A stretch of DNA of 64,000 nucleotides from an uncultured bacterium (GCA_963720265.1 CAVRET010000002.1:392704-456703); one strand, 5' to 3'; positions 3,016-14,704 are shown, counted from the stretch's first letter. The notes: generated by a model from the letters alone, not told the origin. Made by a program: numbers and translations.

Positions 3016-3090
3016 GGCAGTGTAGCTCAGTGGTAGAGCAGAGGACTCATAAGCCTTTGGTCGCTGGTTCGAATCCAGCCACTGCCACCA
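3016..3090 (+). tRNA. tRNA-Met (anticodon CAT) with encoded CCA; elongator-like, though Ile2/lysidine identity cannot be excluded
   Basis: Cloverleaf: acceptor ggcagtg/cactgcc, D-stem gctc/gagc, anticodon loop cuCAUaa, T-arm gctgg-ttcgaat-ccagc, discriminator A followed by CCA. Confidence 0.85.
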
Positions 3091-3492
3091 TAGTACTTAT
3101 GCTTATTTCCTGCTGTTATAATGTCTGGCATGGCAAAGACATCATCGATGAAGAAGATACTGGGTGAGGTGGAGTTTTTGCTTGAGCGATATTCAAAGGA
3201 ACGCCGAGCCACTACCCAGCCGTTTCTTCTCGAAGTCGTTCAACAAAAGTTTAAGGATTATCGGTATAATCCAGCAGACCTGCTAGTGCGTGAAACCCTA
3301 ATCGAGCACGTGGGCTCTCTCCCGATAGTGGCAACGGCTCTCTTCCCGTATATCGATGACCAGGATGTGGACTTGGGTAAGGCGCTTGTTATGCTTGCGA
3401 TTCACGATATCGGCGAGCTTGCCACCGGAGACGAGATTACCTTTACCAAGAAGTCAGAGTCAGCAGCAGCCGAGCAACACGAAGCTCTCAAA
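3091..3492 (+). repeat. Left copy of a ~400-bp direct repeat (intact); begins at the nucleotide after the tRNA-Met CCA and covers the 5' UTR plus codons 1-124 of the HD-domain gene
   Basis: Near-identical to 14261-14658. The first ~267 nt have one mismatch; thereafter the right copy carries several 1-nt deletions. Confidence 0.9.
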
Positions 3493-3780
3493 TTGCTGCC
3501 CAAGCAATATCATGAACTTTATCTCGACGTTGAATCTAAGTCCTCCCAGACTGCTAAATTTGCTAAGGCGATTGATAAAATCACTCCGGACATACTAGAC
3601 TACCTCACTCCGGGTAATATTACGGTGCCTCGTCTGCGTCACTTTGTTGGGATAGGGAAAGAGGAAATTGTAGACACCATCGTCAAACATAAGCGTCCTT
3701 ACATGCTCTGGAATCCGTTTATGACTGAGTTCCATGTTTACTTGATGGAGTGCCTGTCCGAAAAACTCTCGAACGATTAA
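3121..3780 (+). CDS. HD-domain phosphohydrolase (YfbR/5'-deoxynucleotidase-like)
   Basis: LAIHDIGELATGDE HD motif; 219 aa, the size of YfbR-like HD proteins. Confidence 0.65.
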   Translation: MSGMAKTSSMKKILGEVEFLLERYSKERRATTQPFLLEVVQQKFKDYRYNPADLLVRETLIEHVGSLPIVATALFPYIDDQDVDLGKALVMLAIHDIGELATGDEITFTKKSESAAAEQHEALKLLPKQYHELYLDVESKSSQTAKFAKAIDKITPDILDYLTPGNITVPRLRHFVGIGKEEIVDTIVKHKRPYMLWNPFMTEFHVYLMECLSEKLSND

Positions 3781-3789
3781 GTTGCTGAC

Positions 3790-5511
3790 CTAGTTCCATA
3801 CAATACTGGTAGTGTTGTTGGCCTCAGTACTGCTTAAGCCAGCGTACCAAGCGTGCAGTTCATCCCATACCTGGTTCCATTGAAACCCATCCAAGTCCAC
3901 CAATGTACGACTATTAGAACCGGAGCCAAATAAAAAGGCTTCCCCAAGCAACTTCGACCCTTTGGTCGATTTTTGCGTTTTAAGAGCTAGTTTTTGGGTA
4001 GCCAGTGCTTCTTTAACGTTTCGTAATGTGTTAAAAGGCTCAGCGGCCTTTCCATCGGCTTTAATCTCATCGTCCACCCGGTCAACCAATATCCGCTCGA
4101 AAATCGCCTGATTTATACGTTTGCGTATAATATCCGGTGCGACTTTGTAGGCCGAAGAGGCCTGCTTCATGAGCTCAATCGCAGCCTCTACGTGCTTCTC
4201 CAAGTCGCCAACATCCCTAGAGGCCATCTTAAGGGATGATTCGGCTTGCCGAATATCTTTGGCCAGTTGTTGCTGTTCTTGGGCTACCAAGTCGTCGGTA
4301 AGCTTGCCCGCGTAAAACAACTGCATGAGCTTATGCCGCGAGGCTGTCAGCTGTTGGATGCGTGTCGTTTGCCGCGTGACCTCTTTGTTTGCCGTCTCAC
4401 GGTCATCTTTGAGCAGCCCATGAATTGCCGCCTTAACATCCGAAGCCTCCTCCCCGGACAAATACACCCAACGATATTGCCGCTCAATGACCTGTTCTAC
4501 TTCGGCCACCGGCAAATATGGTAGGTCGCAGCTGGCATATTTCGTAGTCTTGCCGACGCAAAAGTAATACGGATACGTCTTACCGTAGGTGAAGCACAAC
4601 CGGAAGCCGCATCTCCCACAATATATTGTGCTTCTGAGGTAATGGTCGTATTTGCGTGACCTGTCCCCGGCCAGTTTTGCTTTCAGCATGTCCTGGACGC
4701 GCTGGAACAGATCTGGAGGCACGATTGGCTCATGCTTACCGTCATACGCTATCCCCCGGTATTTAAGCTTTCCGGCGTAGTACTCATTGCGCAGTAGCAC
4801 ATTGAGCCCACTCACCCCCAAACTTTTTGCCCCCGATGATTTATGCGGCCGTGCCGTTAGCCCTTTAGCATCGAGAATATCTACCAAATGCACCAGGGAG
4901 TACTGACCGGTGGCGTATTGCTCAAACGCAAACCGCACTAGCTCAGCCCGTTCGGGATCTAGCACCACGGTCTTTACCTCATGCCCTTCGACGATCTGGC
5001 GCGCGTTCACATAACCCAACGGCGCTTTATACGGCGTCCGGCCCAGCCGAGCTTTAATGGTCGCCCCTTTGATAACCTCATCGCTCAGATTATCTACATA
5101 GTATTCAGCCATATTCGCGAGCATACGCTCCATGAACTTGCCGGACGCCGAATCGTCAATGTGCTCAGACACGGATACCAGGCGCACGCCGTCCTCTAGA
5201 AGCGCATACTTCATGTTGGCATAGTCCCGTGTATTTCGGGCCAGGCGGTCGATCCGGTGAAAGATTGCCAGGTCAACATCTTTTGACTCGTGAACGAACT
5301 TCAGCATGGCTTGTAGTTCAGTTCGGTCGGCAAACTTTGCGCTTTCTCCCCGGTCCACGAACTCGCGCACCACTTCTGCTCCCAACTCCTCGGCCTTTTG
5401 GTGACAGGCTTCGCGCTGGGCCGGAATGCTGTATCCTTCCATGTCCAAGCCTTTTCGGGCTTGGTCGAGGGTTGAAACCCTTAAATATATAACGGCTTTC
5501 TTCATAGGCAC
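3790..5511 (-). CDS. Large serine recombinase (integrase)
   Basis: N-terminal resolvase catalytic domain (AVIYLRVSTLDQ...RIDRLARN), recombinase domain, Cys-containing zinc-ribbon (CGRCGFRLC...C..C) and a C-terminal coiled coil; 573 aa. Confidence 0.9.
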   Translation of the reverse strand: MPMKKAVIYLRVSTLDQARKGLDMEGYSIPAQREACHQKAEELGAEVVREFVDRGESAKFADRTELQAMLKFVHESKDVDLAIFHRIDRLARNTRDYANMKYALLEDGVRLVSVSEHIDDSASGKFMERMLANMAEYYVDNLSDEVIKGATIKARLGRTPYKAPLGYVNARQIVEGHEVKTVVLDPERAELVRFAFEQYATGQYSLVHLVDILDAKGLTARPHKSSGAKSLGVSGLNVLLRNEYYAGKLKYRGIAYDGKHEPIVPPDLFQRVQDMLKAKLAGDRSRKYDHYLRSTIYCGRCGFRLCFTYGKTYPYYFCVGKTTKYASCDLPYLPVAEVEQVIERQYRWVYLSGEEASDVKAAIHGLLKDDRETANKEVTRQTTRIQQLTASRHKLMQLFYAGKLTDDLVAQEQQQLAKDIRQAESSLKMASRDVGDLEKHVEAAIELMKQASSAYKVAPDIIRKRINQAIFERILVDRVDDEIKADGKAAEPFNTLRNVKEALATQKLALKTQKSTKGSKLLGEAFLFGSGSNSRTLVDLDGFQWNQVWDELHAWYAGLSSTEANNTTSIVWN

Positions 5512-5565
5512 GATTCTCCTGTTTAGTTCCGGAGAGGATACCAGATCTGAAGCGGATGGAAAGAG

Positions 5566-13764: not shown

Positions 13765-13904
13765 GCTCCAAAAGCTTACTAAAAATAGCTAGACTGCTGC
13801 CTAGCTACCATCGTGTAAGTTCCAGATGCTCTTTTAGCATAAACCGCATAATTGGGCAAACGAAAAGCAATTATACCCGCCGATTAATTTAATGAACGCT
13901 AACA

Positions 13905-14261
13905 CTATGCACGCAAACTGGTTGCTCGAAGAGCAATATAGCGACCGCGATTGTCTCGAAGCTGAGTGGCAATATTTGGCCCGCGCGACCGCAGCTTTAC
14001 ACCGCTAACAGTTAACAATTCGGCGAGCCGCTCACGATTTATCCCGCTTAAACCGGCCAGCTCCCGAAGCGTTGTACCGGACTGGTAGGCGAGGACAAGT
14101 CTATTTAGCTCGGCCGCGCTGAGCTGCCTAGTTCGGTTCCGGAGCCGTATATGACGCCTTCTAACTACTGGCCACGATTCCCAGCCTTGTAGGTCCTGGT
14201 TAAGTTTGGCGCAAACTTCATATGCCTCGGCTTTCTGATAGCTCTCACGCAGAACCACCAA
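13905..14261 (-). CDS. Small HTH-domain protein, paralog A (putative element-end regulator or directionality factor); TTG start
   Basis: TLRELAGLSGINRERLAELL is an HTH-like segment. It is a paralog of 18276-18647, and its first ~45 nt recur at 14661-14704. Confidence 0.5.
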   Translation of the reverse strand: MVVLRESYQKAEAYEVCAKLNQDLQGWESWPVVRRRHIRLRNRTRQLSAAELNRLVLAYQSGTTLRELAGLSGINRERLAELLTVSGVKLRSRGPNIATQLRDNRGRYIALRATSLRA

Positions 14262-14658
14262 AGTACTTATGCTTATTTCCTGCTGTTATAATGTCTGGCA
14301 TGGCAAAGACATCATCGATGAAGAAGATACTGGGTGAGGTGGAGTTTTTGCTTGAGCGATATTCAAAGGAACGCCGAGCCACCACCCAGCCGTTTCTTCT
14401 CGAAGTCGTTCAACAAAAGTTTAAGGATTATCGGTATAATCCAGCAGACCTGCTAGTGCGTGAAACCCTAATCGAGCACGTGGGCTCTCTCCCGATAGTG
14501 GCAACGGCTCTCTTCCCGTATATCGATACCAGGATTGGACTTGGGTAAGGCGCTGTTATGCTTGCGTTCCGATATCGGCGAGCATGCCACCGGAGACGAG
14601 ATTACCTTTACCAAGAAGTCAGAGTCAGCAGCAGCTGAGCAACACGAAGCTCTCAAAT
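14255..14658 (+). repeat. Right (degraded) copy of the ~400-bp direct repeat
   Basis: Aligns to 3085-3492 at an offset of 11170. It carries 4 single-nt deletions and several substitutions after position ~14527. Confidence 0.9.
14291..14658 (+). pseudogene. Frameshifted 5' fragment of an HD-domain gene (duplicate of the 3121-3780 gene)
   Basis: Identical N-terminal 79 codons, then frameshifts; truncated at codon ~124. Confidence 0.85.
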
Positions 14659-14660
14659 AG

Positions 14661-14704
14661 CTAGGCCTCGGCGTTCTGATAGCTCTCACGCAGAACCACC
14701 AAAG
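14661..14704 (-). repeat. Third, orphan copy of the 5' end of the small HTH gene (encodes only ..VVLRESYQNAEA then a stop)
   Basis: ggcctcggcgttctgatagctctcacgcagaaccaccaaag matches 14224-14263 and 18576-18616. Confidence 0.7.

Follow-up and report, generated by a model that had tools for sequence, protein, structure and literature searches.

A probable head-to-tail array of integrative elements with a large serine recombinase at the 3' end of a tRNA-Met(CAU) gene

The sequence analysed here, called the window, is a stretch of 64,000 nucleotides from an uncultured bacterium (GCA_963720265.1 CAVRET010000002.1:392704-456703). Near its left end lies a tRNA-Met gene, followed by DNA which encodes a large serine recombinase (LSR), a Replic_Relax protein and various cargo. 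A preliminary description had presented this DNA as a single island of about 11.2 kb, bounded by direct repeats of about 400 bp and ending at 14704. That an integrative element bearing an LSR is linked to the tRNA-Met gene was supported by our analysis. We find, moreover, that the segment 3091-18613 is very likely a head-to-tail array of three members of one integrative-element family, here named E1, E2 and E3, placed at the tRNA's 3' terminus (Table 1). The observations behind this reading are the architecture of the junctions, the gene content, the occurrence of discrete E1-like and E3-like units elsewhere, the existence of empty sites, and the GC contrast with the host.

Table 1. Features of the array and of its junctions (J1 to J4), in window coordinates. 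B and B' are the left and right arms of the bacterial site attB, P and P' those of the element site attP.
Feature	Position	Strand	Description and basis
tRNA-Met, anticodon CAT (CAU)	3016-3090	+	ARAGORN; 3' end is the left (B) arm of attB
J1 (attL)	3085-3109	+	tRNA end CCACCA, then TAGTACTTATGCTTATTTC, the P' arm of E1; aligned on the core: GGTTCGAATCCAGCCACTG CCACCA TAGTACTTATGCTTATTTCCTGCTG
E1, autonomous unit	3091-14260		11,170 bp; GC 0.513; junction spacing and gene content
HD_3/YfbR-like HD-domain gene	3121-3780	+	Pfam; likely start ATG 3130; left end of E1
LSR, 571 aa	3790-5505	-	Pfam resolvase, recombinase and zinc-ribbon domains
Putative ancestral att core inside the LSR 3' coding region	3897-3920	+	CCACCA (3897-3902), then ATGTACGACTATTAGAAC; codons ..T-L-V-D..
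Paralogue of the resolvase catalytic domain, 118 aa	5566-5922	-	Pfam and alignment; lacks the RVST serine motif
Replic_Relax (nicking-type replication initiator or relaxase)	5983-6831	-	Pfam 2e-33; PHROG "replication initiation by nicking" 1.4e-23
E1 cargo and unknowns	6819-13764		Small reading frames, two membrane proteins, a 438-aa coiled-coil/transmembrane protein, a 247-aa unknown; Pfam, PADLOC, PHROGs
NUDIX	10417-10980		E1 cargo
EEP nuclease/phosphatase	10953-11786		E1 cargo
PLD-like protein	12628-13764		E1 cargo
HTH1, 118 aa	13905-14261	-	Opens with TTG-GTG-GTT, which reverse-complements the att core
J2	14221-14279	+	P/P' (attP-like); E1/E2 boundary; aligned on the core: TGATAGCTCTCACGCAGAA CCACCA AAGTACTTATGCTTATTTCCTGCTG
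E2, internal-deletion remnant	14261-14701		441 bp; GC 0.494; P' arm, frameshifted 5' ~400 nt of HD (14261-14658), 5' 40 nt of HTH (14662-14701)
J3	14662-14720	+	P/P'; E2/E3 boundary; ..CAGAACCACCA, then AAGTAGTTATGCTTATATC; aligned on the core: TGATAGCTCTCACGCAGAA CCACCA AAGTAGTTATGCTTATATCAGAATG
E3, unit without recombinase	14702-18613		3,912 bp; GC 0.485; Pfam, PADLOC
SEC-C-motif protein	14763-15374	+	E3
AEP-TOTE PrimPol and SF2 helicase	15371-17572	-	E3; PADLOC PrimPol 6.8e-63
DUF5678	17676-17870	+	E3
Retropepsin-like aspartyl protease	17875-18261	+	E3
HTH3	18276-18614	-	E3; protein 49% identical to HTH1
J4 (attR)	18575-18630	+	HTH3 5' end ..CAGGACCACCA, then AAGAATTATCAGTG (native B' arm); aligned on the core: TGATAGCTCTCACGCAGGA CCACCA AAGAATTATCAGTGTTCCTCACCC
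Reconstructed element-free junction, tRNA/B'			GGTTCGAATCCAGCCACTGCCACCA followed by AAGAATTATCAGTG

Genes and repeats beside the tRNA

The G1-C72 positions of the tRNA are paired, so that it is not an initiator; it may be an elongator Met or an Ile2 tRNA. A second tRNA gene of the window, for Lys (TTT), is found at 48591-48667. The GC content of all three units lies below the 0.58 measured on both flanks, and the steps fall at 3091 and 18613.

Pfam agreed with the preliminary description in placing the LSR and the Replic_Relax protein between the two repeats. The catalytic domain of the LSR (PF00239, 1.4e-27) spans residues 6-157, with the nucleophilic serine of its YLRVST motif intact, and a recombinase domain (PF07508) and a zinc ribbon (PF13408) were also detected. 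Where the coiled-coil motif was sought, residues 376-443 gave a weak match to DUF6031 only. Matches in PDB were limited to domains of the TP901-1 and A118 integrases (A118 C-terminal domain, 4KIS/6DNW). A scan of representative genome contigs yielded distant relatives of the LSR only, at 38% or less, and its closest named homologues outside candidate-phyla bacteria are mostly actinobacterial. At four related loci (L007, L012, L014 and L015), a Replic_Relax gene is found close upstream of an LSR gene in the same orientation, with 0-2 small genes between them. The 118-aa paralogue which separates the two genes in the window is 65% identical in L012 (12251-12607) and missing in L007; its role may be that of a regulator or of a partner without activity.

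Applied to the cargo, PADLOC returned weak or partial matches only. Pfam and PHROGs revealed no VirB4 or type IV secretion system gene in E1, the LSR and Replic_Relax being present. This gene set could be that of an integrative mobilisable element (IME), for which no oriT was identified. We also noted a direct repeat of 66 nt, 73% identical (7011-7076 and 7463-7528; motif CCCCCTTTCGC..GTGATGGATCACTGTAGCG, palindrome GTGAT-GG-ATCAC), which flanks a 101-aa open reading frame (ORF) just upstream of the Replic_Relax operon. This repeat pair could be an operator, or a nick or origin site.

The repeat of about 400 bp, said to begin directly after the tRNA CCA, is real: the segments 3085-3497 and 14255-14662 were recovered both by a repeat finder and by gapped alignment, with two blocks at 99% (3085-3357 versus 14255-14527) and 97% (3405-3497 versus 14570-14662). 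Its first 267 nt or so had been called identical and followed by four single-base deletions. The start is indeed nearly identical, with two differences in the first 273 nt (3091 T/A and 3213 T/C), but the deletions between there and 3497 are five (3358, 3367, 3386, 3400 and 3404), and are accompanied by three substitutions. The two copies thus differ unevenly along their length, at 2 sites in 273 nt and then at 8 in 140 nt (Fisher p=0.0035). Most of the repeat consists of the promoter-proximal 5' part of the HD gene, and the right copy is, as had been proposed, a truncated and frameshifted 5' fragment of this gene. The coincidence of the tRNA CCACCA with the TTG-GTG-G start of the small helix-turn-helix (HTH) ORF at 13905-14261(-) was likewise confirmed.

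Junctions, units and their relatives

The core CCACCA is present at four junctions, at positions 3085, 14255, 14696 and 18608, two of which had been overlooked. The third appeared when the repeat finder matched 14221-14279 with 14662-14720 (93%): it comprises a 40-nt fragment of the HTH ORF 5' end together with the core, and what follows the core, AAGTAGTTATGCTTATATC, is like the left end of E1 over about 19 nt only. The fourth (18575-18625) coincides with the start of an HTH paralogue (18276-18614, minus strand), whose 5' end GTTCTGATAGCTCTCACGCAGGACCACCA is followed by AAGAATTATCAGTG and then by a host-like DUF4118 gene. The pattern CCACCAWAGTASTTATGCTTAT gave 3 matches, when shuffled sequences predicted 0. 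From J1 to J4, the arms around the core come in the order B/P', P/P', P/P' and P/B', as expected from three units integrated head to tail.

In the terminal HTH ORF, the opening ~33 nt correspond to the left arm of attP (P); the right arm (P') is approximately NNGTA(C/G)TTATGCTTAT. The conserved arms measure about 33 nt for P and 19 nt for P', and no centre of symmetry could be located. Past the core, the native attB reads ..(N3-5)AATTAT.. at L010, L011, L007 and J4; the B' arm of J4, which overlaps the stop codon of the DUF4118 gene (18622-19038, minus strand), is homologous to TTTGCAATTATCAACA in L010 and to TTGAATTATTGCCAG in L007. Among six HTH genes, DNA identity averages 85% over nucleotides 1-45, versus 41-67% for the other 45-nt blocks. 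Such conservation fits a dual role of this DNA, as coding sequence and as putative recombinase-binding arm. A search of viral contigs with the P arm and the tRNA end gave no match. Promoter and terminator predictions around the junctions were likewise not informative.

Because CCACCA alone is common to all ten junctions examined, crossing-over most likely occurs in this core or immediately beside it. The preliminary description had suggested a longer core, ccacca(t/a)agtaNttatgcttat; its CCACCA part holds, but the remainder is the element's own right-hand (P') arm. An "AG" crossover dinucleotide, proposed from the comparison of J1 with J4, was dropped, as the three nucleotides after CCACCA vary among loci (TAG, AAG, ATG, TTG, GTG, GTT). 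A tyrosine-integrase island of the Islander type was also rejected: the array has no Phage_integrase domain or tyrosine recombinase, and the tRNA 3' sequence repeated at J2-J4 is CCACCA only, versus a fragment of at least ~17 nt in such islands. Inside the Replic_Relax ORF, the segment 6171-6191 (TGCCATCATAGTACTTCTGCT, codons QKYYDG) matches the hybrid attL junction J1 at 19 of 21 positions. Similarity does not extend to its flanks, and L012 and L007 lack the match at the corresponding position; it could be a chance match or a pseudo-att site.

At J3, the 40-nt HTH fragment comes directly after the truncated HD fragment, and an HD stub joined to an HTH stub is what an internally deleted unit would leave. 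E2 would then be the rest of a second HD-bearing copy beside E1, in which a deletion from about codon 125 of HD to about codon 14 of HTH left a 441-bp stub with both ends intact. Since the HD-type left end is otherwise found only in E1, the parent of E2 would be a sibling of E1. What was taken for a "400-bp direct repeat" is two left ends, that of E1 and that of E2. The HTH fragment of E2 keeps a family-ancestral base (GCGTTCTG) at a position where HTH1 has a private change, so that E2 is not a very recent copy of present-day E1. The clean P/P' structure of J2 fits re-integration beside a resident copy, or integration of a dimer. Of the alternatives raised in the preliminary description, the last one, integration next to an earlier copy, is thus the reading that the evidence favours.

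Next, metagenome contigs were scanned with the tRNA 3' end. Five loci (L009-L013) were found, which are described here in the orientation of the window; they share the tRNA, and the sequence after it differs between them. In a more distant relative (L009, on an 867-kb contig), ftsH starts 34 nt after tRNA-Met. L010 is an empty attB: the 3' end of a GT2 gene and tRNA-Met are followed, after CCACCA, by TTTGCAATTATCAACA.., a 176-aa ORF and, about 1.4 kb on, ftsH, with no element. L013, from the same sample, is a contig which stops exactly at the tRNA CCA. L010, L011 and L013 share 127 identical nucleotides up to the tRNA end, which indicates that the assembly branches there. In L012 the tRNA-Met CCACCA is followed by GTGTAAGCTTATTAGAAC and then directly by the 3' end of an LSR gene, with no HD gene. 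The protein is about 86% identical to the window LSR, as deduced through P0131, whose N-terminus matches the L012 LSR. Beyond it come a small resolvase-like gene, Replic_Relax, other cargo (GreA-like proteins, methyltransferases, CYTH, a kinase) and a terminal HTH gene, and past the right junction another remnant with a 57-nt LSR 3' fragment. From these loci it follows that E1-like units use the same tRNA, and that the ancestral locus is tRNA-Met followed by ftsH.

E3 has the same ends in three contexts, the window, L007 (82% nucleotide identity) and L011 (79%), and is a discrete unit. Its cargo is conserved at 79-83% at the nucleotide level in the three genomes, with an extra 171-aa gene in L011, and might serve in replication or as a conflict system. 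L011 contains an E3-like unit and no E1, with ..CCACCA then TAGAACTTATGCTTAG at the left end and ..GAACCACCA then GTTGCAATTATTTGC at the right end. In this locus the true tRNA-Met (53-127) is followed by a B'-like sequence, GCAATTATT, and by a 1.6-kb segment (a 163-aa ORF, a pyroglutamyl peptidase); the left end of the E3-like unit is joined to an 18-nt copy of the tRNA 3' end (ATCCAGCCACTGCCACCA, around 1721-1738), which is either a second attB-like site or a captured segment. In L007 a complete HTH gene, belonging to an E1-like unit, adjoins an E3-like unit at a clean P/P' junction, and the 441-bp E2 stub is absent; the E3-like unit is followed by the host genes AHSA1, ArsR, TilS and FtsH.

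L007 belongs to a metagenome-assembled genome labelled Candidatus Saccharimonadia, and contains the closest LSR with a genomic context (P0147, 81%). HD homologues reach 74% at best, and those with a named source are all from candidate phyla (Saccharimonadales/Saccharibacteria and one Yanofskybacteria). On these grounds, the host is probably a Saccharimonadia bacterium, with a genome of about 1.1 Mb. Between the array and ftsH, the window has a block of host-like GC (18614-21700: DUF4118, a 282-aa secreted-looking protein, an alpha/beta hydrolase, AHSA1, ArsR). It is absent in L009 and L010, partial in L007 and present in L012, and this patchiness makes the tRNA-ftsH interval a broader variable region.

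These relatives bear on the status of the HD gene, which had been taken as the host target gene. Empty sites do exist, as anticipated, but in them tRNA-Met is followed by ftsH and not by the HD gene; the L012 element occupies the same tRNA without HD; and the GC content of the HD gene is 0.47, island-like, against 0.58 for the host. HD is therefore cargo of the element, peculiar to E1 of this genome and to the parent of E2. Elsewhere its homologues occupy ordinary host neighbourhoods, which fits the capture of a candidate-phyla gene by the element. In two other candidate-phyla genomes, the closest HD homologues with context (L005:9656-10594 and L006:9896-10702) adjoin tRNA genes (Arg and Lys); such a location might have eased the capture of a gene of this kind by an element that targets tRNAs. 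The same adjacency, together with a repeat which starts where the tRNA CCA ends and takes in the 5' part of HD, speaks for a single island of about 11.2 kb, with a ~400-bp copy of the 5' end of a host HD gene beside tRNA-Met either made by its integration or carried in its attP. Besides the points just made on HD, this explanation is contradicted by the 40-nt HTH fragment and third core which follow the HD fragment, so that the repeats do not bound one island, and by the low GC and the fourth junction, which carry the inserted DNA past 14704 to 18613, over two further units. We regard it as extremely unlikely.

In the tandem-array model, the LSR carried by E1 would recombine attP, made of the HTH 5' left arm, CCACCA and the right arm, with attB, made of the tRNA 3' end CCACCA and ..AATTAT... 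E3 has kept both arms and has no recombinase, and was presumably moved in trans for that reason. The order of assembly of the array, and the origin of E2's parent by re-integration or by duplication, are parts of the model that we infer. Several points weigh against the model. Canonical phage LSRs recombine attP with attB only, and a tandem array needs attP x attL or attP x attR recombination, re-integration of a multimer, or homologous recombination. The dyad symmetry of the site is weak. The adjacency of E1-like and E3-like units also in L007 means that part of the array may have been inherited, or moved as a composite, rather than built here. Clustered differences between the two HD copies are not predicted by simple duplication followed by decay. 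Finally, E2 rests on one assembly, as the sole independent contig (L001, from run ERR11523669, 100% identical) covers 16932-19889, and none covers 14261-14701. On the other hand, LSR-driven tandem cassettes, including ones without recombinase, are established for staphylococcal cassette chromosome (SCC) elements (PMC11470126), and tandem copies at tRNA genes are documented for tycheposons (bioRxiv 10.1101/2020.12.28.424599).

The L007 arrangement raises the question of a composite, in which E1, E2 and E3 (3091-18613) would transfer as one through the outermost sites, the internal junctions being fossils. SCC composites, for their part, can excise in all combinations (PMC11470126). Against this, an E3-like unit occurs without E1 in L011 and an E1-like unit without E3 in L012, and the internal junctions have intact P and P' arms. 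We consider transfer as a composite somewhat unlikely, although it and unit-wise behaviour are not mutually exclusive.

Independently of the LSR, E2 might have arisen by tandem duplication of E1, through unequal or homologous recombination or through slippage, followed by a large deletion. The 99% identity of the first 273 nt speaks for it, as does the restriction of HD-bearing units to this genome, which makes E1 and E2's parent siblings; the clustering of mutations on either side of the deletion junction is what error-prone repair predicts. The boundary nevertheless falls exactly at the att core, with a clean P/P' at J2, as site-specific re-integration or a dimer would predict and a random crossover would not. 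The family-ancestral base of the E2 HTH fragment, where HTH1 has its private change, is a further argument against duplication of E1, and re-integration beside a resident copy has been documented for tycheposons. Such an origin of E2 is in our view unlikely.

Within E2 (14527-14665), the five single-base deletions lie within 47 nt, and most substitutions are 140 nt or less from the internal deletion junction. This clustering may reflect error-prone repair of the deletion, polishing errors, or gene conversion that has acted on the left part. The deletions resemble long-read errors in a poorly polished repeat, and no independent contig covers 14261-14701, so the whole 441-bp unit could be thought an artefact of assembly or polishing in a repeat region. 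Collapse or expansion of a repeat would not, however, make a chimera of an HD fragment, an HTH fragment and a distinct E3-type P' arm; the E2 substitutions agree with the family consensus and not with E1, and the first 273 nt are clean. An artefact is very unlikely, and we retain E2 as the remnant of a tandem copy.

The recombinase reading frame at the att core

The LSR ORF of L012 (12668-14345) has no stop before the att core. It runs 13 codons into the antisense strand of the tRNA, ending ..SSNKLTL-VAVAGFEPATKGL followed by a stop, for a protein of 548 aa. When the two ends of this element were joined in silico, the LSR continued in frame into the terminal HTH ORF (..SSNKLTL-VVLRESYQ..), to give 647 aa. 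A second LSR element of the same genome (L014) lies at a tRNA-Val. Its recombinase, P0162, is 42% identical, and the element also encodes a VirD4/TrwB-like coupling protein, Replic_Relax, an N6/N4 methyltransferase and an HTH_3 protein. The P0162 gene (L014:10001-11698) overlaps the tRNA-Val by 44 nt in the same frame, and the tRNA ends with CCCACCA, followed by AAAGTTTATGTT. In an Acidimicrobiales homologue (L002) the LSR reads into a tRNA-Ser (6865-6954), again in the same frame, and in L015 the order is LSR, insertion sequence, tRNA-Pro.

The comparison was extended to homologous proteins (P0131-P0249), with 121 homologues of at least 450 aa. In 58 of them, the last 22 residues include the motif G[FLIVM]E[PL], which is the translation of the antisense tRNA T-loop. 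Two members, P0133 and P0134, are 79% identical as far as ..GGSSEEASLV, after which P0134 has a tRNA-antisense tail and P0133 93 unrelated residues. To the eye this P0133 tail resembles an HTH, but it has no Pfam match and is not significantly similar to the window's HTH; we claim no homology. The sequence evidence is strong that an entire LSR clade has tRNA 3' ends as its target. Members of this clade occur in Saccharimonadia and probably in Actinobacteria, and together would form a sizeable tRNA-targeting group.

In the window, the LSR ORF ends at a stop codon of its own. Another copy of the core (3897-3902) lies within the 3' part of its coding sequence, and the sequence which follows, ATGTACGACTATTAGAAC, matches the left end of the L012 element at 14 of 18 positions. 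Homology to L012 is secure for the core and the P' side of this site only; left of the core (region 3866-3920) the sequence is weakly tRNA-like, and Rfam finds no tRNA there. The internal core matching the L012 left end makes the HD module look like a later addition, and the segment 3091-3896, with the new P' arm, HD and a new LSR tail, appears to have been added onto an older left end. Such an addition would have uncoupled the window LSR from the HTH ORF.

From the geometry of these reading frames comes a split-gene model, in which the terminal HTH ORFs (13905-14261, 18276-18614 and the stub 14662-14701) would be the detached C-terminal module of the recombinase, attP lying inside the LSR ORF. 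Integration at the tRNA CCA end would split the ORF, leaving an LSR with an antisense-tRNA tail at one end and an orphan HTH at the other, and excision would restore the longer LSR-HTH protein. We put this forward tentatively, as a possible but doubtful reading. A profile search of 1.84 billion representatives retrieved no natural LSR-HTH fusion. In the same collection the HTH family had four full-length relatives at E<1e-30 (112-165 aa) and a fifth at E~6e-9. HTH1 as the query of a word-indexed search for homologues gave no match. Comparison of the in-silico fusion with plasmids by tblastn returned matches in the LSR domain only, at 29% identity or less. If the model is true, two isoforms of the enzyme would exist according to the integration state, which could set directionality, and the system would be a bacterial serine-recombinase counterpart of the archaeal "suicidal" integrases of the SSV type.

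Significance and known systems

The anomaly of an LSR flanked by 400-bp repeats is resolved by this analysis, the repeat being the ordinary remnant of a tandem copy, and attB, attP and unit boundaries are defined for a Saccharimonadia mobile-element family. Few mobile elements with mapped ends have been described in candidate phyla, our literature search finding none, and nothing specific was found in the literature on Saccharibacteria with serine recombinases or genomic islands. These bacteria are hard to manipulate, and a recombinase whose tRNA target is known could be developed into a genetic tool for them. The idea of recombinases split by integration and re-joined by excision is also raised, and the ORF-across-att feature, seen at the level of the clade, is the point most worth pursuing.

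Targeting of tRNA genes by an LSR clade would be of interest because the literature calls it unknown or rare. According to one account (PMC4383910), serine integrases were not known to have tRNA genes as targets; later, such targeting was predicted in 14 of 297 cases, "requiring experimental proof" (PMC7192596). In eight AICEs (integrative and conjugative elements of actinomycetes) of Mycobacterium, integration at tRNA-Leu was attributed to a serine recombinase and called rare (PMC3218068). These resemble the present elements in combining a serine recombinase with a tRNA target, but E1 was found to contain none of their FtsK-like Tra and RepSA/RepAM/Prim-Pol modules. The phage integrases A118, TP901-1, Bxb1 and phiC31 have the same resolvase domain, recombinase domain, zinc ribbon and coiled-coil region (for which the window LSR has the weak DUF6031 match only); unlike the window LSR, they have protein-coding or intergenic targets and make single insertions.

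Tyrosine integrases of the SSV1 type have attP in the recombinase gene and a tRNA target, and their integration splits the ORF; recombinases that split their own gene have been described as exclusive to archaea (PMC8371274). The LSR ORF similarly crosses the att core in L012, L014 and L002, and in the excised L012 circle it would join the HTH in frame. Here, by contrast, the recombinase is of the serine family and the host is a bacterium, and the part cut off is no more than a C-terminal extension, while the domains for catalysis, recombination and zinc binding stay whole.

Prochlorococcus tycheposons share with the array tRNA-adjacent integration, tandem arrangement, remnants, and primase/helicase modules with cargo, and in them too a second copy can insert abutting the first. 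They differ in having cyanobacterial hosts, common gene families with the array are not demonstrated, and 910 of 937 have tyrosine recombinases, the other 27 an LSR (bioRxiv 10.1101/2020.12.28.424599).

A further parallel is with SCC/SCCmec, mobilised by the LSRs CcrAB or CcrC. In both systems LSR cassettes lie at the 3' end of a conserved gene, head to tail and separated by repeated att-like sites, of which there are four here; some cassettes have no recombinase and are mobilised in trans in SCC, and E2 and E3 have none either; and the cargo is rich in defence-like genes (PMC11470126). Differences are that the target is a tRNA and not rlmH (orfX), that a single LSR, distant from the characterised ones, stands in place of Ccr-type recombinases, and that the array has a Replic_Relax partner, a host from the candidate phyla radiation, and a P arm inside coding sequence. 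The array is therefore an analogue of SCC and not a member. We conclude that the locus represents a family of LSR elements which target a tRNA gene and accumulate in tandem, together with a recombinase-less partner, in a candidate-phyla host.

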